From assembly GCA_044892525.1 (NCBI GenBank), contig CM097885.1:77066001-77130000 (forward strand): DNA of 64,000 bases, in the 5' to 3' direction. Shown here in pieces: positions 1,455 to 60,840 of this stretch. Position numbers and translations under genes: made by a program. Numbering within the stretch: the first letter of the stretch is position 1; each line of letters begins with the position of its first letter. This stretch comes from Schmidtea polychroa (taxonomy: Eukaryota). Below the pieces are notes generated by a model. The model did not search any database. It saw only the letters and a program-made list of their open reading frames with translations, and was not told where the DNA came from.

Positions 1455-2452
1455 GACCACACTAGTTCGGAATCATTCTTTGTCATAGTAAGGTAAGAGC
1501 TCTGATTCTTAGTCTCTTGCAGTCGCTCGCTTCTCCACTTTGGCCAACTTTCCTCCTCCTCCTGTAGAAACCTTGGTCGTTCAAACCACAACTTTGAATC
1601 TCTAAGTTCCTCGGCCCTCATTACCCTTTATCGCAAATCTACGACATTTTCCTTCGTTGGCACATACCTCCACTGTGAGCTTCTTGTCGAACGCTGAATT
1701 TCCTTTCTTTCACTTTTGTCAGCAAATATTCCATTCCCCCATAATGTTTCAATGACTGATGTATCTCTGACACTATTAACCGAGCAACCCAACTTTTCCC
1801 TGAGAGTATTATCGGGTACTTCGTCACCGGATCCATCAAAGTTGCATTTGCGAATCGAGTCCCACTACGGCTTCATATGCGCATTTTGAAGCCTCCACAA
1901 ATATGTGAAACTTCGACTCATTATTCGCGTCTCAAATTAAACATCTTTCGCATCTGACTTCATTTAAGATTGGAAATACCTTCAACCAGCCCTCGACCTT
2001 TCTCAATAAATGTTGTGGTAACAAGTCATCCCAATCCATACCCGCCAACCAAATCTCTTGCATTAACAGCTTACCCCTGATCATTAAACTTCCTGCTAAT
2101 CCCAAAAGGGTCAAATATCCTCCCTAAGCAACTTAGAAATCCTCGTTTCGAGAGCCTTTGTTGAGTTGGTAGTTTGACATCGTAACCTCTGCCTTAATCC
2201 AAACGAGTCCAGGAGTTTTTACTGCTACCTGATTTCCATCGTTCAAGTTTAAGAGCTTTGATCTCCTTTCCTCAGGAATCGTTTCTAGCACCCTTTTTTC
2301 ATTGGTGAGCTACTTGTTGGTTAGCATTCCTGCATGTTCTCAGATATCAATTATTTCGTCCTTGACCCTAAATGGTTCCTCCATTGACTGAAAGGAATCC
2401 ATCGTATGATCCATGTACATGTACATTGTTCCCGCCGCTATTGGAAACTTTG
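1455..2452 (-). mobile_element. BEL/Pao retrotransposon pol fragment (RT end, RNase H, pre-integrase region), degenerate and internally rearranged
   Basis: Minus-strand peptides KFPIAAGT..MD..MDSFQS, DPFG-like/LAGSLMIRGKLLMQEIW..GMDWDD, WRYVPTKEN, DPVTKYPIILSGKSWVARLIVSEIH. Nucleotide blocks are near-identical to 51990-52920. Confidence 0.85.
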
Positions 2453-3099
2453 GGAATTATAATTTGGGAATTATAATTTGTTGGACATTATAATAAGAAA
2501 TGTCTAGCGAAATAATTCTATGTAATTCATACAGATCACATTCAATCCCCGGTTCTTCACTTAATCCAGCTCCGGTTTGCAATGCTTGAAAATCATTTTC
2601 ATCGTCAACAATCCAATACTGATCTGCATAATCACTCTCAGTGTTTGAACAATTTCAAATAGATATTCAAAATTTAATTCTTCAACTATTATATTTATTT
2701 CTTCTGCATGTCTTAAACATTCACTTTTATCTCTTCCTCCGAATTTATTATCTCAATTATTTAAGGATCTTGTTTTTTTGTTAGTCTTCAGAATCTATTA
2801 TTTCGATTACCTATGGATATTTTATGACAACTTTTCCCATTCTAGGTTTTTTATTTTGAAATAAATGCGAACAAACTTGTTTTTTGAAAATTTAAATTTT
2901 ACGCATAACTAATTGATTGTTTTGGCGATTGTTTGCTTTTATTCTAAAATATTAAATTAAATAAATATATTAAACAAAAATATTCGCTTCCTGTGTTAAA
3001 TAAAAAATTTGAATATAATTAAAACAACTATAGTTGCTAGTTAAATATCGTTAATAGGTAACTAAACCATTGTTGTTAGCAAGCAACCAGAATATTCTC

Positions 3100-3340
3100 G
3101 AATTTTTTTAAATATGAATCAAGATGATGATGACATCTCTCTTATAAACGTTTTCTCCAATATTTATCAAATCTTTTTATTAATTTCATCTGAACTTTAC
3201 AAAATTCTGATTAATTCAAACCATTTTCAGTTTCTGAACCTCGAAGCCAATATATTTTGTTGAATTTTTTTTGTAAAAAGCCTTTTTCCATTACCACTAT
3301 AGCCGAAAATTTGATAAACAACTTCATTTTGTAAATCCAT
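3100..3340 (-). pseudogene. Degenerate P-loop NTPase-like fragment
   Basis: The minus strand reads MDLQNEVVYQIFGYSGNGKRLFTKK (hydrophobic strand plus a Walker-A-like GxSGxGK), followed by a frameshift and stops. Confidence 0.3.
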
Positions 3341-22633: not shown

Positions 22634-23783
22634 CAAGGGTGGGCACGCATGGGTTCAATAAGAGCCATTTTCCGAAAATTTATTTTTTACAGAGCCACCA
22701 TAGTAAAGTACATATTTTTTTTTATTTCAATAATTTGATTAAAGAGACTTAAACGCTATTAAAAAAAAACAAAATAATTATTTCAAACATTAAGTAACAA
22801 ACATAAAAATCCATTAATAAAAAGTAATAAAACTTCTTGAATTAACGAAGACTTTTGGTCAAATCTTTGAAATTTGGTGTATACTTTGTTAAAGCTGTTC
22901 GCAGCAATTCTGTAAGATGCTGATTGGTCAACTGTGAACGATATTTCGACTTTACGAACTTCATTGTGGAGTACAAAGATTCACAACAATATGTTGTACC
23001 AAAAATTGAAATTAGACGGCAAGCAGCTTGTTTTAAGTGTGGGTATTTTGCCTCTGGTACGAGTTTCCAAAATTCAACTATAGAAGTAGATTTATGGTGC
23101 ATTTGCAAAGCCTGGTCCTCTTTCATATCTAATAACTCCAATTCCCCAACCGCTTTTTTAACAAGTATTACTTCAGAAATTGGAAATCCATCTTCAATAA
23201 TATCACAAATAAATGGGTTCACAAAAAATGCAAATGTAGATTTATAACTTTTCAAATCTTCAAACCTACATTTGAAATCCGCTTGCAATTCTTCCAATTT
23301 TTCACTGTATTCGTTTACTTTTTCTTCTGTAATATCAATTATATTAGCTTTTATTCGTGGAAAATGATTAAATATTTTCGACCTAAGATCGTTCACAAAA
23401 AGCCGAAGTTTAGCTTCAAAACTAAATAACGTTTGTGACAAATCAATAATTATCTTTTCTTTTCCTTGTAAAGGCAAATTTAATGTTTGCAAATGTTCCA
23501 TAATGTCTGTAAGGAACATTAAGTCAGAAAGCCAAGTTTCATTTTCTAATTCTGGGTATGCTATTCCGCCGCCTACTACAAAATAATTTTAAAAAGCAGT
23601 AAAATGTGAAAAACAATGTTTCGTTAATTTTTGACATTTATGAAAATACAATTGCAACAAAAAATTTTTTCTCAAAACATTTAGTGAAAAATTTCAAAAT
23701 AAAAAATCGAATTCGATTATCAAGAATTCAATTATCAATGAGCCGCAGTTTACTCAACGAAGAGCCGCATTTGCCCACCGTTG
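22634..23783 (-). mobile_element. Internally deleted hAT (Charlie/GTF2IRD2-like) element, 1150 bp, retaining the C-terminal transposase ORF 22842-23519
   Basis: TIRs CAAGGGTGGGCA / CAACGGTGGGCA and a perfect TSD ATATATAA (22626-22633, 23784-23791). Peptides WLSDLMFLTDIMEHL..LQGK and FGTTYCCESLYSTMKFVKSKYRSQLTNQHL (hAT dimerisation domain). Confidence 0.92.
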
Positions 23784-31705: not shown

Positions 31706-32150
31706 TACCGGCCCAATATCCCCATGGGCCTACTGGTCCACAAATATTTTATTTTTTATTTTTTTAATGAAATGAAATTAAATTTTTACAATTGTTACTT
31801 CTTTCTATTTCTATTTAACTCAATGGTTGATTAACGAAACAACAAAATAAACATCCAGATAATGTGAGTAGAATGAGATGTAAATGAGATGTTCTGTCGT
31901 TCGTCCAGCACTACATAATACATAAGTCTCACTCAAAAACTTCTCCATTTTAAATCGACTCAGAAATTGTTTAAGTCAAAAACATTTGGAAGCATTTATG
32001 CTCATGGCGTGTGAAAAAGGTATTCTAAATTGCATTGACAATAATTGAGTAATTGATATGAGAGAAAAAAGAGAAATATTAAAAAACTTGTTTAATTAAT
32101 AATATTTATTTAATTAAATACTTAAATAAACACGCTAAAGATTTTATTAA

Positions 32151-32350
32151 TAAAAATCGCCATTCGTACATCTTTTTCACTATATATTTCGATAGCATCA
32201 CTATTATCATCAGGTTACCTACATTCACGAAGGATGAATAACTATACTATATTGATATATTATTCATCCGTCGTGAATGTAGGTAACCTGATGATAATAG
32301 TGATGCTATCGAAATATATAGTGAGAAGGATGTACGAATGGCGATATTTA
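32151..32350. repeat. Foldback inverted repeat: 91-bp arms with 4 mismatches, ~18-nt loop
   Basis: 32151-32241 is the reverse complement of 32260-32350 (direct comparison). Confidence 0.92.
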
Positions 32351-32745
32351 TTTAATTATTTTTAATTACTTAATTTTGATTTGTTGAAATTATTAAAAAA
32401 AATCCTTTTTTTATTATGTTAATAAATATGTCTATAAATTCCTAATGCAATGTTATTATTGGTAGGTAGTCTGTACTTTGGTAAAATACTTTTTGTAAAC
32501 ATAAACATGAGGCTTCGTGTAGAGCCATTTCTAGTGGTCATAACGTCGGAATTTCACTCATACTTTTCTCAATGCCGGTCATGCTATAGGGATAATACCT
32601 AGAAATTGTTGGTAATTTGTATTTGCTTAGTTAAAATATCTTAAAATTCGCAAATTCAGATTAAAATTATTGCCATTATAATGTTGTAATTCATCCCTCG
32701 AAGGTGGATATATGAAATAAAAATAAAAATATAGAAACGAAGAAC

Positions 32746-45884: not shown

Positions 45885-45989
45885 TGTTGAGCTAGAACTG
45901 AATTCTTGACCCATATCTTAGAACTGTGACGGAATGTGGTGGTACACAACATGCATACCCCGCATTAAGTTTACTTAAAACTATATAAA
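45885..45989 (+). mobile_element. 5' end of LTR family A, truncated
   Basis: TGTTGAGCTAGAACTG...GCATTAAGTTTACTTAAA aligns at roughly 80% by eye with the reverse complement of 51878-51983. Confidence 0.75.
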
Positions 45990-46190
45990 TGTTGGGTTAT
46001 TGGGTTGGTGATAAATTTAAATGTTACTCGGACTCCAAGCGTGTCTTTGACTGCCACACAAATAACAATTAACACTGGAAACTTTATTGAATATCACAAA
46101 TATCTTCACACTGATACAATTGACTCAACAAGCTAACTATTATACCGTGCTTATTACAACATTATGGTGAGGAATAGAAAAATCGTATAA
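45990..46190 (-). mobile_element. LTR family B terminal fragment
   Basis: TGTTGGGTTATTGGGTTGGTGATAAATTTAAATGTTACTC matches 54660 onward. Confidence 0.8.
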
Positions 46191-46199
46191 CTTTGATTT

Positions 46200-46796
46200 G
46201 GCAAATCTCTCTCGGTCCGATTGGAAGTCTTGCTTTCTTTCCGTAAATGGCCGAGAATCGTTTGAGGAGTCTAGACAAGCGATTAAAGAAGGACAATAGG
46301 TTAAAAGGAAGTTACAAAAGTGTACTTGATGATTACACGCGGAAAGGGTATATCAGGTTATTAGCGGAGAAGGAATTTTGTCAGACGAAATGGTTGTTGC
46401 CACATTTTCCTGTGGTAAAGATGGACAAGAAAACAACCAAGATTAGAATAGTTTTTGATACAGCAGCGAAAAACAATGGTTTCAATTTAAATGATGCCAT
46501 AGAACAAGGTCCAAAGCTACAAAATGATTTATTCGAGATATTGTTGCAATTCAGAAGGTTTCCTGTAGCGATTGCTTGTGATATACAAGAGATGTATTTA
46601 CAGATAAAGGTAAACACGGATGATTGGAAATATTTAAGGTTTATGTGGACTGAAAATGGAGAAACTGAGGGATTTGAATTCGAAAGTCTAATCTTCGGAC
46701 TAAACATATCTCCGTTTCTAGCGCAGTTGGTCACGAGGCATAACGCTGGGAAGTTTCAGAAGAAGTTTCCAATAGCGGCTGGAACAATAATAGAGT
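46200..46796 (+). mobile_element. BEL/Pao RT, N-terminal half (left part of the split element)
   Basis: WLLPHFPVVK..TTKIRIVFD, LNDAIEQGPKLQNDLFEILLQFR, DIQEMYLQI, IFGLNISPFLA; ends GTIIE. Confidence 0.92.
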
Positions 46797-48079
46797 TGGT
46801 GGGTTACAGGTAATCCAAAGTTTCTACCTACTTGTGCTGTTTCCAGCGTAACCCAGAATACAATTGACAGCTGACCACTTGATACCCGTTGAGCAATCAA
46901 CGTTGGTACTGTATCAAGGGTTTGAGTACTAGCAAAAAGTGAGCATGCTTAGCATACTATAATTGTCTAGCACCCACTGGGGTTCACGGTCTGCCGATAG
47001 AAGGCTTATGTCCGATTTCTTATTCTTAATTAAATTGTTTTCCAAAAATCTAGAAACTCTCACCATCTCATCAGACTGATATCAAACAAACCCGCGAAAT
47101 TAAACAATTTTATTGATACCCTTATATACTCATTATACGCTTATGTACCTTCCTGTGCGTCCCCATACGAAAACCTAATTGTCTATGACATAAAAATACA
47201 AGTTAAAAACTGATGATAACGGTGGTTCCTAATTTAATCTATGCTCCACCAATAAAAATGTATTCTACATTCTAATAAAAAAAATTACTATATTGAAATA
47301 TTCTCAATTTGTTTTTTGTTTTTTTTACCTTGTTTAGGTTCGGAATTTCCTTAAACCCAAAAAAAATTTATTAATTATGGGAGTTCATTAGATATTAACC
47401 TGTGTTTATCTATGGCAACAGGATTACAAGTAAATATAATTGTTTCAAATTTATTTATATTATATATTAGAATTATTATATTTAGATTTATTAAATTTAT
47501 TAGCCAAGTAAATTAGGCTTACAGTCGTAGGTAAGTTGTTGCAATCCAACATGGATTCTCTCCTTACCCGTCTGGCAAGTCTGATTCTACCGGAATATTC
47601 AGTTGGCCTAGGTTAATTTTTCCTTTAGGTTCTTTATATTAACTTGCAACATAATGGTCGATCTTGCATTATGAGGCAATTTTTTATGATACAATATTTT
47701 ATGATCTTAAGGATTACACTAAATCTCGGTTGGATGTTTGGCCGTGCTCCTTGACCCTTGGTAGTTTTAATTCTTCAGTCGGATTTCCCCAATTTCATGC
47801 TTCGGTGCTGAGGATAATAATCTGGCACTATCGAATCCAGTTTTTATTTTAAAAATTTCAGAATTATTCGACGGACAATATTTAGGTTTGGACCTATTCA
47901 GTTGGCTACCATCGCTCTTATTCAATCTCGTTATTCTATTCTATATCATTTAGTTGGGTTTAACAATCATTCTACCCTTGGTAATATGTTTTTTTTAATA
48001 AAAAAATGGTTTATCTTTTGATTGTCGCTAGACACACTATCATTAATTGGTGTTATTACATGTATTTTGACAAGTATAT

Positions 48080-49900
48080 AATTTGAAGGAGGGGGGGGGT
48101 GTTAGGGATATTTAAATAATTAATTTATAAATAAAATATATATTATATTATAAGAAAAAGTATAATAAGTATAAAAGCTGGCACGCATAATTAGCATTAT
48201 TATTTAATTAATTAATTCGCATTTCAATCGGGTGTTTTAATAATACCAGATTTAGGCAATAATTTGTATTTTGTATTTTGTATTAAAAATAAATATTTAT
48301 AGATTATTAACTGCTTATTATTAACAGGGGGTATTTCGGGAAATTACAAATTATATTTTTTAAGTTTAAGATTTATACATATGATTTGAATTAGTCATGT
48401 TACGTTATTTTGCTATGTTATAGCGTAACGGGGTCTTCGTGAAAATTATAAGTGATTTTTATAAGGTTACAACATATATATACATATATACACACACATA
48501 TATACATATATATATATATATACACGCACACATACCTATATATGGATATAATTTAAATTAATAATATTGATGTCGTTTTCCGGGGGGTGTTACTAAAAAT
48601 AGATTTTAGTGGTTTTCCGTAATTTTATTGGAAGATAGGGTCATTGAAGCTAAATTTAGAGATAGGGTAATCCCAAAATCGATAATTTGGTTTATAATTT
48701 TATTTTCATGAAATNNNNNNNNNNNNNNNNNNNNNNNNNNNNNNNNNNNNNNNNNNNNNNNNNNNNNNNNNNNNNNNNNNNNNNNNNNNNNNNNNNNNNN
48801 NNNNNNNNNNNNNNNNNNNNNNNNNNNNNNNNNNNNNNNNNNNNNNNNNNNNNNNNNNNNNNNNNNNNNNNNNNNNAAGATTACCACATATGGGGGGAGG
48901 GGTCATTTACGAAAAATTATGAATTTATATTTTTAAATGAAATATAATTTAACTGTCTATGAATATGATATAATTCATTATATCTAAGAAATGATTAATT
49001 GCTACATGATTTGAGGGGGGGGTCATTTATGAATATTTACAATTTATATTTTAAAATATAATATAAGTTAAATATATATTAAGATAAGCTAATTTAGTAT
49101 GCTTAGTTAACGGATAATGACTGCATGATTTTGAGGGGGGTCATTCATAAAAATTTACAATTTATATTTTTAAATATAATATAAGTTAAATGTATATTAA
49201 GATAAGCTAATTTAGTATATTTAGGTGGTAGTTGATGACTATATGGTTTATGGGGGGGGTCTTTAATGAAAAATTTTCAACTATGATTTTAAAGGTAATA
49301 TAAGTTAAGTATATATATAAAATAGTCTAAGTTAATGCTTTAAGGGAGTGGTTAATGGTTATATGATTTAAGGGAAAGTTATTTATGGAAAAATTATAAA
49401 TTATAGTTTTATAAATTTGGTATCTGTACATATATATGTTAATTTATATTGTTTTCGACTATTCGGTAACTTAGGGGGTAGTTAGGGAAAGTTTAATAAT
49501 TTATAATTTTATGGATTTATTTTCAATTTATAAATAAGTTAAATCAGCACTCTTGACATAAATTTGAGCTACCATACTATTTGAGGGAGGCATCTGTGAA
49601 AAAAGGTAAATCATACTTTTATAAGTTCTAATATGCTTATGTATGCTTTATATTATTAACATTAGCCCCCTTTTGATTATGATATAACTTAGGTGGGGTA
49701 CTAATGAAAGATTACAAATTATACTTTATAAGTTCAAAATGTGCAATTATAGTTTGGAATATTTCTTTGAACATGTGTTTTGGCTATTATACAACCTGAG
49801 TGGGTATTTAGGGAAAATTTTATAAATTATAGTTTTATGAGTTTATTATACATGTATGTATTTTAGATTAATATTTTTAACATTGATTTTGACTATTATA
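48080..49900. repeat. Degenerate ~105-122-bp tandem array with a G-run head (GGGGGGGTCATTTATGAA...)
   Basis: Unit heads at about 48890, 49015, 49135, 49252, 49370, 49474, 49583, 49692 and 49798, with weaker units at 48086-48580. Confidence 0.8.
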
Positions 49901-50799
49901 CATGTTGAGGTCTCAATAATATTTATTGAAACCCAACGTGCACTGGTTATAACTATATAAATATATAAATATGAAAACACCAAGGCCAAATTTGTAACTA
50001 AAATTTATTAATATAAAATTTTTTACCAATTCAAATTATCGGCTTGAATATCTTCAAAATCAATCTCTCGTTTCAAACTCTTTTACAATCAATTATTCAC
50101 TTCAAACTCTTTTTGATTTACTTTCACGATGCGTGTTGTGTTTTGTGTGTGCGTGTTATATGTGCGTGTTGTGTTGCTTGTGATAACCTTTAGACGTTTT
50201 TGTAGTGTCTGTCTGATTTTTATGCTTTGTAAGGATTTACCTTCTAAAGCGGTACTAATCGCTTATTTTTTGGGCGAATTTTGTGATTTTGGGTTCAGTA
50301 TATATACTGAATTTTTGTTTATTTAATCTATAGAATAAAATTCCATTTATTTGTTCTTATATAATATTTATATTTAAATGGATTTAAAATTACTTTTCTT
50401 GTTTATTTAATAAATTGTTTTTTTATTTATTCAGAATTTATATTTCCCTTTTGTGAATTATTTAAATGTAATTGCAACCATAAAGATATGAATTAAAATA
50501 TAAATTATTATAATATATTGTACAAAAGGATATAAGAGTATAAATTACTACGTTGTAAAAAAATAAAATATGAATTACTACAATATAAAAAATAAAATGT
50601 GAATCTATACAGCATATACTAGAAAGATAAAAAAATGAAAGATATAAATTACTACAATCTAAAATAAAATATGCAGCTTATACCATATACAATAAAATAA
50701 AGATGAGGATATAAATTGTTATAAAATATACAATCCCAAAGATTCATTATTGTTAGAAGGATTAAATCACATTTGTCTCTTAATATAGTAATTGTTAAA

Positions 50800-51436
50800 T
50801 CACGCTTGATTGTTTGGGAACAGTCTTCTTTCTGCGAATATATTCACCCGGTATCGATTCGGGCCTGTTTGATAATACTTTGTTAACTCGAATTTTTCAA
50901 TTCTTCGACCCCTATCATCCAACATTCCTCCCAGGGCCGTCAAGGTAATGTCCTCATTACCTTTATCGCAGATTACTAATTCGATCTCACAATCACTTGC
51001 TTTCATCACTGTTCTCCGAAATCCTTTTTCCAAAGCCAAATTCAGTATGTCTCCGTTGTTAATTCGTCTTCCGAAATGACGACATATGTCTTTCTCTGAG
51101 ATCATACCTTTGTCCTTTTCAATTATAAAGTTCGGCTCTTCTAACGCGATATTTGGCTCTGGTCCCAATTCCTCCTCTACTTCTTCTATTTGCATTTTAT
51201 AATCGTCCTCCGTCTCTTCTTCTATTGAGAAATATTCTTTGTCTGAATCCAGGTCGCATTGTATCTCTCCAAATTTACTGCTAGTCCCTGGTTCTCTTTT
51301 GATAGTTGTAGGCTGAATTGTACTATTTTCTTGCTTCACAAAAATAAGATCGTCGTCGCTATCGTCGTCCATTAACTCGTCCTCAAATGTTCTCCGCCTT
51401 CTATCTTTTAGAAATTTTAATTCTACTTGCGATGGC

Positions 51437-51505
<69 letters not shown>

Positions 51506-51747
51506 TTATCGTCTAATTCTGGCTCATCACTGGTTTCTCTCCTCTCACTGAGTTGATAGCCCTGGTTATTTTCGTCTTTTTGAAATTGTGTCATCTCCCA
51601 ATGTATGACTTCTTCCCATTGTTTTTCCACAATTTGGTAAATCACCTTTAAAATGAGGGTGGTATCTTCTGTTGAAAATGGTTCTGGTCTTTTCAGGATC
51701 TCATTGATTTTCTTGTCCTTTCGCCATTTTTGATGGGTTGCTATCAC
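50800..51747 (-). CDS. Orphan 315-aa acidic protein inside the 5.2-kb insertion, with an in-frame (TA)n-derived (IY)n tract
   Basis: Long stop-free ORF that stays open ~35 codons further upstream. It starts at GTG; an ATG near 51858 lies out of frame. Confidence 0.6.
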
Positions 51748-51983
51748 TTGGAATGCTAGGTTTGATAATCGTATTTTGTGTGGTGCGATGTTCTTTTCGT
51801 GTTTTATTTTATTTTTAATTCAGATGTTTTATTTTTGGGTATATTATCTCTCTATTATCATTGTTTACTTGGTGTTTTATATATTTTTATTTAAGTAAAC
51901 TTAATGCTGGGTATGCGTGTTGTGTACTGACACATTTCGTCCCATTCCTAACTTTGGGTTCAGAAATCAGTTCTAGCCCAACA

Positions 51984-53955
51984 GAGTCCACGTACATGGA
52001 TGATAAGATGGATTCCTTTCAGTCGGTGAAGGAAGCAGTTAGGGTCAAGGACGAAATAATTGATATCTGGGAACATGCTGGAATGTTAACGAACAAGTGA
52101 AAAAAGGTGCTAGAAACGATTCCTGTGGAAAGGAGATCAAAGATCTTAAGCTTGAACGATGGAAACCTGGTAGCAGTAAAAACTCTTGGACTCGTTTGGA
52201 TTGCGACAGAAGATAAATTTGGTAACGAAATTCAGCGTTAGACGAGAAGCTCATAATGGAGGTATGTGCCAACGAAGGAAAACGTCGCAGATTTGCTACC
52301 AAGGGGAATGAGGGCCGAGTAACTTAGAGAAGGAACAAGGTTTCTACAGAAGGAGGGGGAAAGTTGGCCAAAGTGGAGAAGCAAACGACTGCAAGAGACT
52401 AAGAATCAGACCTGGACTCAGAGCTCTTACCTTACTATGACAAATAATGATTCACGACCAGTGTGGAAGACAAGTTGTTTAAATTCAAGGACCTATTCTA
52501 ACTGGAGAAGACTGGTGCGCACGAGACCTTGGCTCAATAGATTCGTTGAAAACCTTAAACAAGAAAAAACGAAACGGCCAAATGGGGACCTTACTAGTGA
52601 AAAAATTGAAGATGCAGGAATCGTATTGATTCTTGAAGATCAGAAGAGTGAATTTTCCAGAGAATGGAAAGACATTAAAAGTGGCAGATTCGTAGAGATA
52701 AAAAGCACACTAAGTTCGTTGTCCCCCAAGATTTGGGACGATGGAATAATCCGGAGTGGGACTCGATTAGCAAATGCAACTTGGATGGACCCGATGACGA
52801 AGTACCCGATAATACTCTCAGGGAAAAGTTAGGTTGCTCGGTTAATAGTGTCAGAGATACATCAGTCATTGAAACATTATGGAGAAATGGAATATTTGCG
52901 GACAAAAGTGAAAGAAAGGTATTGGGTTGTTGGTTAAAAAAATACGGAAAGAATATGTGGTTTGTCAAAGAAAGAGAGCAAAACCAATGGAACAAATTAT
53001 GGCACCAATTCCTGGTTTTAGAGTAAATGAACCTTTGAAAGCGTTTAAAAAGGTTGCAGTGGATTACGCGGAGCCAATGACAACGGTCCAGGTACGTGGG
53101 AATCATAGAGCGAAGCGGTATCTCTGCATATTTACCTATCTCATAACAAGGGCGTGCATTTAGAAATGTCATATCATCTAGATACCGAGAGCTTTATATG
53201 TGTATTCAAAAGATTCATTGCACGTCGCGGAACACCCTTGTTAATATTGTTTGACAATGGAACGAATTTTGTAGGGGCAGCTAGTGAAATTGAGAAAGTG
53301 GAGATTGATACGTACTCAATCCAAAGTGCTCTTAAAAATGATAGAATAAAGTGGATCTTTAACCCGCCTTGTGCACCCCACTTTGGAGGGGTTTTTGAGA
53401 TACTAGTGAAAGAAGCAAAAAGGGCTTTATTTGCAATTGCTGGAGTTGCAAACTGTCATTGTGGAGGCAGAAGACATTGTGAATAGTAGGCCGTTGACAA
53501 CTGTTAGTGAAGATCCGGAGGAAGAAGAAGTGTTGACACCTAACCATTTCATCAAGCCAGTTCACAAGAGGTTTATCAAGGAAGAGATAGAACTAAAGGG
53601 AACGGTGATAAAAAAGACATGGAAGCTGATTCAAGACTTAAAGGAGAAATGGAGACAACAGATTGTGATTGGATGGAGGGACCGAAAAAAATTGACAAAG
53701 GATGGAAAAGATTTAAAATCCGGAGATTTAATTTGGCTATTGGATGATGGATTGTGTAAGATGTGGAAGTTTGGGCGAGTAGTGGAAGTCTGTCCCGGCG
53801 AAGATGGACACATCCGAGTGTTAAAATTATTTTGTAAAGGAAAAGAGTTATTTAGACCAATAACTATGGTTTGTTCCCAAGAGTTAAATATGGTTGTTGA
53901 TCTGCTGGAAGGGATCAAGGAGAGGGGTAGTCTCATTGAGGAGAGCCGAGCATAA
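51984..53955 (+). mobile_element. BEL/Pao pol, right part (YMDD, deleted RNase H, integrase, DUF5641-like tail)
   Basis: STYMDD, WRYVPTKENVAD, CQRKRAKPMEQIMAP, VAVDYA, FIARRGTP..DNGTNFVGA, APHFGGVFE, LTPNHF, GRVVEVCPGEDGHIRV. Confidence 0.92.
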
Positions 53956-54659
53956 GGAGCCCTGGTACAATCTCAGGACTTATATACGGTGTATACAAAG
54001 AAACAATTTGAGGCACAAATTCACAGACTCACCTCCACTCAGTGACTCTATTTCCTGTGAACCATCTTAAATAAATCTTTAACGCGCTCTTCAGTCTGAC
54101 CTGCTCTATGTTGGTGACATCTTCGCTTGCTCCTGCCTCAATTTTGTCCACAAGTGTGCCCAAGCCTTCCCTTGTCATATATATGTTTGTGGCAAGTCTA
54201 CCGATTCAGTGGCGTCGCAACAGGTTAAATAGCAACATTTCACTCGCTCAAGGCGTAACGCGAAGAAACTCGCGAAGGAAGCCGCCACGCTGAACTTCTT
54301 ATGTCAGCAATCAGATACCTCTGAACACAATCTCGAGGCCTCTGATATGGGGTTTCCTTCTCGTTAGGGGCCGAGGACATCTTCAATTTAGATCAGCTGC
54401 TAAAAGAAGCAGAAGTTTACATGTTATGAATTGAATTTGATTAAATTTTGGCTAATTTCTATTTATCTTTCGATTTGATTCTTGCAAGAAATTATAAATA
54501 TAAATAACTAGCTAATTAATCCGCCTCCACTCGGGATTCCAAGCCGTATATAATAGTAATTCAAAATTCAAAATATTTAAAAATTGTTTTAATCGAATTA
54601 TTTTTGGTTCGTTACATTTTTGCGCGGGCTATGAGGATAAGAGCAAAATTCATGAAATA

Positions 54660-55573
54660 TGTTGGGTTATTGAGTTGGTGATAAATTTAAATGTTACTCT
54701 GACTTCAAGCGTGTCTTTATACGATTCACAAATAACACTTGACAACAGAAATCTTTATTGATAATCACAAATAAACTTTCTCTTTACACTGACAATCAAT
54801 TCAACACTCTGCTTGGTGACTATACAATGCTTATTACAACACTCGGTGAGGAATAGCACTTGCGTATAACACCGGATTAAAGATCACAAATTAGTGATTG
54901 GTTTATCAACTGGGACATTGAGCTGGTTGTTTTCTTTGACCTTCACAATTTTATTCCAATACTCAATTAACTTTTCGTTTTATTTTTCAACGAATTCTTT
55001 TATTCAAATCTTCTCCAACAATTATTCTTCACAAATCGTTTCCCAATAACGTTTGTTCGACTCTGTCCAATTTGTCTCTCACGTTTCGTCTCAATTTGCA
55101 TCACTCTTTGTCTCTAATTTTGTCTCTGCTAGTTTTTCTATATATAGTTTACTTATATTGTGGCACTCAAGATAGTCAAGTGTTTTTTCACTTTCTTTCT
55201 CCTGCTTTCCCCGATTGTTCCATTTTTATCTCTGACGGCTGTCAAACTATTTTCCCTTTTTCCTTTTTTGTTTAACCCCTTTCTCCCAGCAATTCTGTTA
55301 TCACTGACAAGCTGTCGAGATAAGAGTATTGTTGTTTTACCTATTTTCCCATTTTCGAAATTCCTATTCCTTTTGTACTAATTAATTAGTACTGACCTTG
55401 ATTTTTATTTTCTTGTTTAATTTCTTTTGTTTCCTTTTTCTTTCTCATTTTAATTTCTTTTTACTTCCGTTTTCTTTTCTGAGTTCTCATAGATCGTCCC
55501 GTTTGTCATGGTGATCTTCCCCCAGGTAATTTTATTTATTTATTTATATTTTGTCATTTAGGTATTCTCAACA
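54660..55573 (-). mobile_element. Solo LTR, family B, 914 bp
   Basis: TGTTG...CAACA termini and a 4-bp TSD AATA (54656-54659, 55574-55577). Confidence 0.88.
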
Positions 55574-57148: not shown

Positions 57149-60100
57149 CAGGCCCGTACCGTCGGGGGGCCCAGGAGGGCCCGGCCCCCCAAACGCAAGT
57201 CTGCCCCCCCCCAAATAAAAAAACGGACATGAATAAAAAATGATGGTTTTACTTCAAGGTGAAAATGAAATAAACAATTACATTTATTCATGTACCATAA
57301 ATGATCTAATAAGCACTATATAATGGGCCGAATCCTAAAGAAACCTTTTAATTAAAGTCGGAGCATCGTTTTAAATTTCACTAAATAAAAACTTTCTCGT
57401 ATCCTAATTAACTGAGACTTAATCATTTTCTTAAGTTAAAAAAGATTCTCTAACAAAACTTTCAATGGGTGGTGAGGTCTTTTAAATTAGTAAAGCAATG
57501 TTACATGTCGCGAAATTTCTCAGATGTGTACGGAATTCGAACCCCGGAGTGTGTCTATAAATTTCCCCAAATCGTTAAAGGGTAGTGCTGGACAATTAAA
57601 ATATTAGCCTCACAGGATTGCTTAACACCAAATGTTAACAGCGCAACAATTGTCGATACCAAACGTTGTCGACAACAGTTGCTCTAATGTGAATCACTGC
57701 ATTACATTCAATATGTTTGATAAAAGAAAAATTGCTATCGTGCACACATGCATTGACATGGGTGTGCATGAGTTGCACATGTAGAGGTTTATGTAGTATT
57801 GACGATGGTAGGATGTTCCATCTATCTGCCTCACTGGAAGAGACTGGCATGTGAAGTCGGTGGCGTGGGTAGGGTGCGTGCTGTCTGTCTTTCCTGCCTC
57901 ACAGGCAGTAACAACGCATGGAGGCATGATTGAGTATCAGAGCACGGAGTGGGTGCATTGTGGTCTTTATACGATGGTAGAGAGATAGGCCAATGAGAGC
58001 ACATCACATGTCATTATACTCAACTCACTCCTATGGCAGAGTGACATGTTAATTGATCATATTTTGTAACATTATTTTCATCGTATTAGAACATGTCGAC
58101 ACAAAAGAGTATCATGAATTTCTTCCAAGTCATTCCAAAGAATTCTGTGACTTCAATCACTTCATCCAGTGATAGTATCTCTGCTACTATGTCCTCAACT
58201 TGTGCTAGTCCTTCATCTGTACCTGCTATTTCATGTATCCGTGACAGTGCAGTGATGTCCTCATCTTCTTGTGCACCTGCTAAGACTCTGTCATCTACTA
58301 AATGTGATCTGGGTGAAGAAATGCCACGCCAGCCAACTGATGTAAATTTCCCAAAGACTTCGTTTGGTTCAAGGGAACGCTCATTTTCGTCTGTGTGGTA
58401 TAATGGAAGACCATATTTGGAGTACTCTATTGAGAAAGATGCAGTCTTCTGCTTTTGCTGTAGAAAATTTTCATTGCCCGGCTCTGCTGGCGAAAGTGCT
58501 TTCAGAACAGGAGGATTCCGAAATTGGAAATCGGCTTTAGAAAAAGGAAAAGGTTTTCAAAAGCATGAATCTTCTGCTGGCCACATCCATGCCATGGAAC
58601 GCTGGAAAGAGAAACAGCTGAGATGTGAAAAAGGTGAGGAAGTTTGCACTTTGATTAATGAAATACAGCTGAAGAACAACCGTTATTATGTCAACGAAAT
58701 CGTTGACGTTGTAAAGTTTCTTGTGACAAATGAATTAGCCTTTCGTGGTGACAGTTTCAGTAGAGATGATATTGATGAGGATGATAAGTTTCCGTGTGGT
58801 CTATTTTTACGTCTCTTCGAATACACTGTTAAGAAAAATCCTGAGCTGGCTCGAATCATTAAAACGATTCCCAAAATTGCCACGTACACATCACCTCGAA
58901 TTCAAAATGAAATTATCGCGTTAATGGCATCAATAGTGCAAGAGTCAATTGTTAAGAAGTGCAAGTCTGCGGATGTTGAATATTTTACTCTGAAGGTGGA
59001 TGGTACCAAAGATCGAACAGGGACTGAGAATGTGTCGATTGCCATAAGGTTTGTCTCAGCAGGACAACCTCAGGAGCACTTAATCTGCATTTCCCGAACA
59101 ATTGCTCTCAATGCAGAGGCCTTCACAGATGTAATTTTGACAACCTTGAAAGAGGCTCAGTTGGATCCTAAAAATATAATTTCCCAATGCTATGATGGAG
59201 CCGCTGTTATGTCTGGACAGCATGGTGGGGTGCAGGCCTTGCTTCAGGAGCGTCTACAAATAGAAATTCCGTATGTCCATTGCTTCAACCACAAGTTGCA
59301 TTTGGTTGTTGTGTGTGCCGTTTCTGAGTGCCAAAAACTGCGGGACTTCTTCGACATATGCAGAAACTTATACACATTTTTGTCATATCCTAAGGTTGCG
59401 GCCATATATCAAGGCGATAAATTGACACAGCTCATGGAACATCGTTGGACAGGACACTTGCAGACGACTCAGGCAATAACAACTAATTATGATACAATTG
59501 TGAATTTGCTTGAGATGTGTTCTAGTAGACATTCTCACTTTTCAATTGATATTCAATTGGAAGCTACTGGAATCTTGCATCGAGTCAATGAAGTGGAGTT
59601 TCAGTTCATTGCACACATGGTGCTCTCATTGCTGACTATCCTTGAAACAGCCAACAATAGCTTGCAGGGTCAAGCAGTGGACCTTTCTTCAGCATGTGAT
59701 GTTATGGATGCCGTCATAGAGCGCATTCGCAGCCTACGCAATGAAGAGGAATTCCAAGTTCTTTTTGGGAAATTCGAAGGTCAAATGGATATGGAACAGA
59801 CACCAAAAAGAAGAAGAACTCAGATGAACTCAAAATTAGACAACTTCATTGTGTTCGGATCTGTGGGACAGCCAGAACACCAGGCCTTGCCTATCAGATG
59901 CGCATATCGCCAGATGTATTACGAAGTCGTTGATAGGACTCTGCAGGAACTAACAAAACGCTTCGGTGTCACCAACAGAAGCCTTTATAAGTCTCTTGCA
60001 TGTTTGAAGACTGATCACGCAAACTTTTTGAATATTGACGAGCTAAAGACTTTAGCGACACTGTGTGGCGTGGACCTAAGCAAAACCCAACATGAATTTG

Positions 60101-60840
60101 AAACTGCAAAGGTTTTCCTATTGAAGAGAGCCAGTACTGTGACAAACGTTCATCAGTTAGTGCAAGAACTGTACTCATACCGAGATGCTTTTCCATCTGT
60201 CTATCGTCTTGCAGCTTCTGCACTGACAATCGGTGCTTCAACTGCCACATGTGAGGCGACTTTCAGTACTTTATCTCGTGTCTTAACTCCCTTTCGTACG
60301 TCGATGAGCCATTCTCGTAAAGCCAACCTTGTATTGCTCTCATTTGAAAGTGACATCAGTAATAACATCAAATCTGATGAGTTTCTTCGGCGGTTTCATG
60401 AAATGAAAGATCGTCGACTGCAGCTATTTTGAGTCATGTCGATATCTCACACACGTAATTTCTTTTTTCTGGATCTAGTTCCTGTGTAATTTCTATTGCA
60501 CTCACCTTTAGTTTTCAAATCTGTGTGACTGTGTGTTCTGTCTTTGTATGTCCAATTGTCCGTCGTGCAAATACATGCAGCTATTTGTTTTTTGTGTTTG
60601 TTCCTAAAAAATGTGCGAAAATCATTTCCTATATACTAGTATATGCAATAATGTAGCAAAATGATGCTAAGACAAAATGTCGATTTTGCTTTCCTTTTTT
60701 TTAAATTGAACATTTCGGAGTGCAAAGTGTGAGTAGTGACTAATCTGTTTTCATAAAATACTTAGTTTACACGAGAATTACTGGCCCCTTTAATGAGAGT
60801 CTGGGCCCCCCCCGTCAAAAGGTGTCACGGTACGGGGCTG
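57149..60840 (+). mobile_element. Full-length hAT transposon, 3692 bp
   Basis: TIRs CAGGCCCGTACCGT / CAGCCCCGTACCGT and a perfect 8-bp TSD ATCTAGTG (57141-57148, 60841-60848). Confidence 0.96.
58093..60432 (+). CDS. hAT transposase (ZMYM1-like: TTF-type Zn finger, DUF4371-type core, hAT dimerisation domain), 779 aa, intact
   Basis: FCFCCRKF..KHE..H zinc finger; catalytic D (VDGT), D (YDGA) and E (CEATFS); CxxH (CFNH); RW motif. Confidence 0.95.
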   Translation: MSTQKSIMNFFQVIPKNSVTSITSSSDSISATMSSTCASPSSVPAISCIRDSAVMSSSSCAPAKTLSSTKCDLGEEMPRQPTDVNFPKTSFGSRERSFSSVWYNGRPYLEYSIEKDAVFCFCCRKFSLPGSAGESAFRTGGFRNWKSALEKGKGFQKHESSAGHIHAMERWKEKQLRCEKGEEVCTLINEIQLKNNRYYVNEIVDVVKFLVTNELAFRGDSFSRDDIDEDDKFPCGLFLRLFEYTVKKNPELARIIKTIPKIATYTSPRIQNEIIALMASIVQESIVKKCKSADVEYFTLKVDGTKDRTGTENVSIAIRFVSAGQPQEHLICISRTIALNAEAFTDVILTTLKEAQLDPKNIISQCYDGAAVMSGQHGGVQALLQERLQIEIPYVHCFNHKLHLVVVCAVSECQKLRDFFDICRNLYTFLSYPKVAAIYQGDKLTQLMEHRWTGHLQTTQAITTNYDTIVNLLEMCSSRHSHFSIDIQLEATGILHRVNEVEFQFIAHMVLSLLTILETANNSLQGQAVDLSSACDVMDAVIERIRSLRNEEEFQVLFGKFEGQMDMEQTPKRRRTQMNSKLDNFIVFGSVGQPEHQALPIRCAYRQMYYEVVDRTLQELTKRFGVTNRSLYKSLACLKTDHANFLNIDELKTLATLCGVDLSKTQHEFETAKVFLLKRASTVTNVHQLVQELYSYRDAFPSVYRLAASALTIGASTATCEATFSTLSRVLTPFRTSMSHSRKANLVLLSFESDISNNIKSDEFLRRFHEMKDRRLQLF

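Follow-up and report, generated by a model that had tools for sequence, protein, structure and literature searches.

A 5.2-kb insertion in Schmidtea polychroa is a solo long terminal repeat, very probably of a pol-less Burro-derived family

The gypsy retrotransposon Burro-1/GYPSM1 of Schmidtea mediterranea reaches up to 25 kb and encodes a 4,873-aa polyprotein with the order gag-MATH-env-protease (PR)-reverse transcriptase (RT)-RNase H (RH)-integrase (IN)-ankyrin, accompanied by TRAF and BIR-RING open reading frames (ORFs) and by tandem repeats within its long terminal repeats (LTRs), as outlined in the Burro section of PMC6431247. The TR-GAG elements of plants are non-autonomous, measure less than 4 kb, and combine two LTRs with a single Gag ORF, recent movement and a related autonomous partner (available text of PMC4350172 and PMC8704663). 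Here, we describe a 5.2-kb insertion at positions 46797–51983 of a 64,000-nucleotide stretch of the Schmidtea polychroa genome (contig CM097885.1, hereafter the window) that relates to both systems. We are highly confident that it is a solo LTR from a Burro-derived family without pol and env, and that the 3′ end of another gypsy element has taken the place of ~2 kb of it. The insertion and its host comprise the following features.

46797..51983, minus strand: solo LTR, very probably of a pol-less Burro-derived family (class II below), with ~2 kb replaced by a second gypsy fragment
46793..46796, plus strand: left GAGT of the 4-bp target-site duplication; ten of the 11 other BEL copies compared have one GAGT only
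51984..51987, plus strand: right GAGT of the 4-bp target-site duplication
46247..46796, plus strand: RT region of the host BEL/Pao element, 5′ of the insertion (weak RVT_1 match and comparison of BEL copies)
51984..53955, plus strand: host BEL/Pao element downstream of the insertion, with YMDD and then a decayed pol with DUF5641

The insert starts with TG, ends with CA, lies between two copies of GAGT, and interrupts the RT of the BEL/Pao host two codons 5′ of its YMDD motif. A genome search with the right flank revealed 25 other BEL copies, 11 of which were fetched; ten read through the site with one GAGT and in frame with both flanks of the insertion, and in the eleventh the site is broken by an (AAT)n run. 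Because the ten copies preserve the empty site, both the insertion and the GAGT duplication are real, in agreement with the original prediction, which had been made from the letters of the window and had reported TG/CA ends, a duplicated GAGT and a restored BEL frame. The same prediction had noted short, imperfect terminal inversions, which extend over about 7–10 bp, and no internal pair of direct LTRs, of which we also found none within 46797–51983. TG...CA ends flanked by a short target duplication are what a Ty3/gypsy solo LTR presents, namely a single LTR between duplications. A second decayed copy of this BEL family lies at window 1457–2450 (minus strand) and has a short deletion beside the insertion site.

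The two ends of the insert recur in the genome as LTR ends. Searches with each end returned 1698 and 2707 candidates, the best 40 of which were scored in each case, bearing out the multicopy family postulated earlier. The same ends delimit direct-repeat pairs of 4–5.5 kb, 97–100% identical (97.1–99.9% and 99.3–100% in different pairs), that surround gag-coding internal regions; the two ends co-occur, and of the options first offered, a giant solo LTR is the one that paired copies support. Duplications of 4 bp flank five class II pairs as well as the two class I pairs that were examined (the classes are defined below), and the words found around two-LTR copies are GTAT, CGGC, ATAG, CATA and ATGA. 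Two motifs are constant within the pairs: a primer-site motif, which we take to resemble proline tRNA, comes after the 46797-type end, and a motif on the polypurine tract (PPT) side, which is not a canonical purine run, comes before the 51983-type end. Full copies have the primer site after the 5′ LTR and the PPT side before the 3′ LTR, and the LTR in the window accordingly reads on the minus strand. Exact copies of these junctions number 389 on the primer side and 385 on the PPT side.

The original prediction had also considered that the 5.2-kb unit might be a non-autonomous element in its own right, an independently mobile, LTR-less cargo carrier moved in trans by a gypsy integrase. Its TG...CA ends and 4-bp duplication would suit such an element, as would six further unattached units of 4.1–5.5 kb, each with its own 4-bp duplication, found among 27 whole LTR units in one fetched tile; moreover, only 11 of the 105 occurrences of the exact 32-bp window end lie beside the PPT side of an internal region. 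However, two-LTR elements have these units as their LTRs: 20 of the 27 adjoin the primer or PPT motif, and one more adjoins a one-base variant. LTR-LTR recombination yields an excess of solo LTRs, so that a surplus of unattached units is expected, and the 21 attached units together with the six solos form the pattern of an LTR family with many solos. An LTR-less cargo element would further be expected in multiple cargo copies with different duplications, whereas the cargo is unique to the window copy, with both of its junctions single-copy. We consider this explanation very improbable. The stretch 46797–51983 is a solo LTR with its sense on the minus strand, not an LTR-less mobile element, and the idea of a non-autonomous element moved in trans fits the two-LTR parent family instead of the 5.2-kb piece.

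The internal regions behind these LTRs fall into two classes, of which we inspected two regions of class I and 15 of class II, out of about 390 junctions. Class I has an internal region of ~25.5 kb with a ~4,790-aa frame (two tile pieces of 3,009 and 1,781 aa) that contains a gag with three CCHC knuckles, MATH, then an env that precedes pol, then PR-RT-RH-IN and ankyrin; TRAF and BIR-RING ORFs come after this frame. The env is a mononegavirus-like fusion glycoprotein, and the whole corresponds to the layout of the autonomous Burro-1/GYPSM1, a giant polyprotein in an internal region of ~25 kb, which class II does not share. The class II internal region measures ~10.6 kb and differs from Burro-1/GYPSM1 in lacking MATH, env, PR, RT, RH, IN, ankyrin and the accessory ORFs. 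Its single ~1,570-codon ORF encodes a Ty3-type capsid and three knuckles and continues for ~1,100 residues past them. It consists of the first ~1,000 residues of the Burro polyprotein and the last ~600, joined in frame near residue 970, and is 69% identical to class I residues 4–1012 and 48% to the C-terminal ~740 residues. This ORF was matched in 14 of the 15 internal regions behind class II-type LTR ends, and MATH, env, PR, RT or integrase in none of the 15, four of which are truncated or partly fetched; pol was matched only beyond the ends of one LTR pair, which is itself nested in a class I copy.

The spacing of primer and PPT sites reflects the two size classes. On C1, 94 of 100 primer sites among the matches listed were considered, the six beyond the range of the PPT list being dropped; binned purely by distance to a PPT site, 40 fall at 24.5–26.8 kb, 23 at 9–11.5 kb and 12 outside both ranges, leaving 19 without a partner. 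A few class II copies may be hidden in the long bin, since a 25.3-kb case at C1:224.49 Mb, outside the binned range, is a class II element with inserts.

Several observations concern the structure of individual copies. Ahead of gag and behind the primer site, class I has a leader with an ORF for a RING protein of 160 aa (L115:7990-8469); this ORF is open in all eight class I copies sampled, and the corresponding one is broken in the one class II copy tested. Tandem class II elements, in which two internal regions share one LTR, occur at C1:224478947-224553710, C1:85868315-85896075 and C1:113194915-113199955. At C1:98544677-98562016, a Polinton/Maverick-like gene set with ATPase-, capsid- and polymerase-like ORFs, recognized by eye and with few matches in Pfam, sits in a class II ORF between two LTRs. 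An LTR-bounded Polinton (C1:98.54–98.57 Mb) was rejected: the genes split the class II ORF at about residue 808–870 and are therefore a secondary insertion. A 33.9-kb direct duplication at C1:221795320-221839079 contains a short LTR derivative together with Polinton-type polymerase and integrase ORFs.

The window copy can be divided into the following parts, to which one related fragment outside the element is added.

51797..51983, minus strand: LTR 5′ terminal 187 bp, class II, overlapping family B (below) by ~3 bp at the junction
50800..51799, minus strand: 5′-truncated end of the family B last ORF (the former orphan ORF), exonuclease-like domain tail and acidic region
50925..50935, minus strand: purine-rich tract before the family B 3′ LTR, from its sequence and its position beside the LTR end
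49903..50924, minus strand: family B 3′ LTR, TG...CA, 1,022 bp, outer end flush at the element terminus
48895..49411, no strand assigned: tandem array with a ~119-bp unit, present in other class II LTRs too
48715..48876, no strand assigned: run of 162 N bases inside the LTR, directly before the tandem array
47500..47960, minus strand: part of an LTR subtype block, formerly a second decayed frame, unsupported as a gene
46797..49902, minus strand: LTR 3′ part, alike in blocks to the LTRs at C3:123545045 and C2:144551600
45885..45989, plus strand: separate fragment of a related LTR 5′ end outside the element, 105 bp, 81%

The 5′ terminal 187 bp place the window LTR with class II, being 98–100% identical to class II LTRs and 71–74% identical to all eight class I LTRs compared; the 3′ end is 77–83% identical to the same eight. 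A solo LTR of the autonomous Burro-1/GYPSM1 class itself would also account for the terminal motifs, primer site and PPT side, all of which the 25.5-kb class has in common with the window copy, but the divergence of both ends from every class I LTR and the lack of the two small ORFs carried by class I LTRs make this highly doubtful. The link to Burro drawn in the original prediction thus holds in outline, through shared ends, primer site and PPT side, but the LTR type goes with class II and not with the autonomous element. The two small class I ORFs (121 aa, and 99–111 aa from ATG) have basic C-termini and lie near the LTR 3′ end (L115:2510-7272, L111:1972-7137); class II LTRs are without them.

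LTRs of the two classes are 67–83% alike, in blocks only. In both classes they are mosaics: subtypes share the ends and the central array, while two blocks, one in the middle and one of ~1.3 kb close to the 3′ end, exist in several unrelated versions that recombine among subtypes. In the window copy, the last ~229 bp of the 3′ part are family-wide and adjoin the primer site in two-LTR copies, and 47026–48146 is a subtype-specific block. The closest relatives are the solo LTR at C3:123545045 (5,513 bp; 92% over query positions 1–1350) and the LTR at C2:144551600 (5,515 bp; 92% over positions 1–931 and 90% over 2095–3106), which is joined to a class II internal tail.

Comparison with these relatives also clarifies smaller features of the LTR. 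The tandem array described originally is genuine, with a 119-bp unit running from 48895 to at least 49324. The N run that precedes it, 162 bases long versus 214 and 276 bases in the two closest LTRs, had raised concern about a misassembly; both of its sides are collinear with those LTRs, and so there is no sign of one at 48715–48876. A second decayed frame had been proposed at ~47520–47950. None of 15 homologous segments of 47500–47960, itself included, contains an ATG frame longer than 76 aa, and the stops are common to several copies. The stretch bears no similarity to the two ORFs of class I (Burro-type) LTRs, and its reading as a gene was rejected for want of support. The reported recurrence of the first ~100 bp at 45885 is real, but 45885–45989 is an inverted 81% match to the 51876–51983 end, which comes first on the minus strand only. 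This 105-bp fragment runs straight into another TG-starting repeat (window 45885–46191) that recurs at 54659–54870.

The ORF once called orphan belongs to a second gypsy element. It has no Pfam match, and 11 full-length matches to it exist elsewhere in the genome; all seven that were followed up match 49903–51799 only and belong to a ~14-kb gypsy element with 1.1-kb LTRs, referred to here as family B, in which both LTRs lie within the fetched range in six of the seven. One family B copy was scanned for domains and contains gag, Bcl-2, env and pol. Its env piece shares an exact 8-residue word only with the Smed_errantivirus_3 entry, which has the same gag-env-pol order; the closeness of these non-identical sequences was judged by eye, without formal alignment (available text of PMC13524379). 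Residues 4–339 of the window ORF match residues 602–919 of the 919-aa family B last-ORF frame at 91% (blastp), and the DNA of 50800–51799 is 98–99% identical to family B copies. The frame stays open across an in-frame (AT)32 expansion at 51440–51503. The window keeps the last ~0.9 kb of family B internal sequence and the 3′ LTR. The last ORF of the family includes an exonuclease-like region, a lead only (0.85), whose first motif lies upstream of the kept part. An orphan gene was rejected on these grounds, and the description of a gene-carrying solo LTR falls with it, the ORF being a single-copy remnant of a nested second element.

Relative to the solo LTR at C3:123545045, the window copy has 1.9 kb of family B in place of 2.0 kb of LTR. 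One junction of the chimera is flush with the family B LTR terminus, the other has ~3 bp of microhomology, and each occurs once in the genome (at most one mismatch). The simplest reading of 49903–51799, and a likely one, is an insertion of family B followed by a deletion. The family B piece might instead have been captured by template switching during reverse transcription, before integration, a route with which its orientation (that of the LTR), the short microhomology, the open frame and the mosaic of exchangeable blocks in LTRs of this family would all agree. Yet the flush junction is what integration leaves, ~600 residues are missing from the start of the ORF, the first exonuclease-like motif among them, and the chimera is single-copy; template switching is therefore unlikely, and it would alter only the route and not the identity of the parts.

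Insertion followed by deletion completes a plausible history for the locus. A full class II element would have integrated into an older BEL copy. The RT and integrase for this step probably came in trans from the 25.5-kb Burro class, with which class II has LTR ends, primer site and PPT side in common. LTR-LTR recombination would then have left a solo LTR, into which family B would have inserted in the same orientation, and a deletion at ~3 bp of microhomology would have removed most of family B and ~2 kb of LTR. The order of LTR recombination, family B insertion and deletion is not fixed by the data; the 98–99% identity of the family B piece to its relatives suggests that it arrived last.

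Some points weigh against this account. Among the two-LTR elements, no LTR was found that is identical to that of the window along its whole length, and the closest attached one, at C2:144551600, matches blockwise and sits on a truncated internal region; matches in blocks follow from the mosaic nature of the LTR subtypes. The flanks of the two-LTR copy at C1:98.53 Mb do not match each other. The other half of the family B target duplication is gone, leaving one flush end and one microhomology junction as the basis for insertion and deletion. Mobilization of class II in trans is a proposal, though a likely one, and beyond the two class I and 15 class II regions inspected a rarer autonomous partner with class II-type LTRs may exist. 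The locus itself is an ordinary outcome, a dead solo LTR and a nested remnant in a dead BEL copy. It differs from solo LTRs and nested insertions followed by deletion in general only in its 5-kb size and gives no support to its earlier rating as the best candidate for an undescribed system.

The parent family is of wider interest. A protein search with the class II tail scored 105 of 627 candidates, all 105 at 92–100% identity, so that the family numbers at least 105 copies; stop-free frames of 1,560–1,590 codons were present in 55 of them. Class II LTR pairs are 99.3–100% identical, indicating recent integration, which requires RT and integrase from another source; the helper in trans is probably class I, whose termini and primer site are the same. 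In one pair of copies, the synonymous divergence (dS) between class II and class I is 0.8–1.2, and the ratio of nonsynonymous to synonymous divergence (dN/dS) rises from 0.08 in the capsid through 0.12 in gag and 0.19 in the middle region to 0.25 in the tail. Neutral evolution of just the class II branch would put dN far above the 0.066 measured for the capsid, and we therefore infer selection on that branch. Among class II copies, dN/dS is 0.39–0.69, as expected where much of the difference arose after insertion. Contigs from three runs that are only guessed to be RNA extend over the class II ORF, and one of these spans the fusion point; the one raw RNA run, under another organism label, gave 1 matching read. 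None of this was used as evidence.

The last ~500 residues of the class II ORF include a hydrophobic, signal-like segment, a membrane helix and a short tail, and 12 of their cysteines also occur in class I. The likely class of this part is a surface protein. Its language-model neighbors are all class II fusogens (0.84–0.89, under the 0.9 threshold for a lead). Class II fusogens have an elongated three-domain β fold that closes with an Ig-like domain ahead of a membrane anchor. A model from a four-sequence fold reached a predicted local distance difference test (pLDDT) score of 38, with only a ~80-residue β domain at 51–74; Ig-like matches to this domain are weak, none at E ≤ 0.001, and the model does not corroborate the fusogen lead but is too poor to count against it. 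Two word-based protein searches found no relatives of the tail at E ≤ 0.001, and none were found among metagenome contigs or PDB sequences. Cluster representatives gave three weak, apparently spurious matches, two of them to ankyrin proteins. We tentatively suggest, as a possibility that the odds do not favor, that class II is an old, still-spreading Burro satellite that lost env and pol by an in-frame deletion and retains, under purifying selection, its own Gag and a cysteine-rich membrane-anchored tail, which might be a class II-like fusogen.

Among described systems, class II parents resemble TR-GAGs in having two LTRs, a single Gag ORF and no pol, as well as in their signs of recent movement and a related autonomous partner. 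They differ in size and host, being ~20-kb animal elements with 4–5.5-kb LTRs in place of plant elements below 4 kb (available text of PMC4350172 and PMC8704663), and the ORF is not restricted to Gag but keeps ~1,100 further residues, including the predicted membrane-anchored tail. The Burro section of PMC6431247 contains no class resembling class II, and the available portions of PMC8532177 and PMC11410931 mention Burro but no pol-less class. No description of a pol-less Burro class was found in the literature searched, a search that left out the primary Burro paper and its repeat library, where the family may already be listed.

Elsewhere in the window, hAT transposase ORFs with DUF4371 and the hAT dimerization domain lie at 58090–60432 (plus strand), open for 780 codons, and at 22842–23588 (minus strand), and a 93-bp inverted repeat, 96% identical with an 18-bp spacer, occupies 32149–32352.

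The value of the locus lies in the Burro lineage to which it leads, which lacks pol and env and numbers at least 105 copies, and on C1 about a third of the paired Burro-type primer sites (23 of 75) fall in the class II size class. Reported counts and expression values for Burro may therefore mix helper and satellite. If undescribed, the lineage would be an animal counterpart of the plant TR-GAGs at five times their size, and would show which parts of the Burro polyprotein can be borrowed and which, namely Gag and the membrane tail, are needed in cis. If the satellite interpretation is true, the tail, with which the Burro polyprotein also ends at its C-terminus, may be an additional surface protein, and the satellite would build or decorate particles and compete with its helper.

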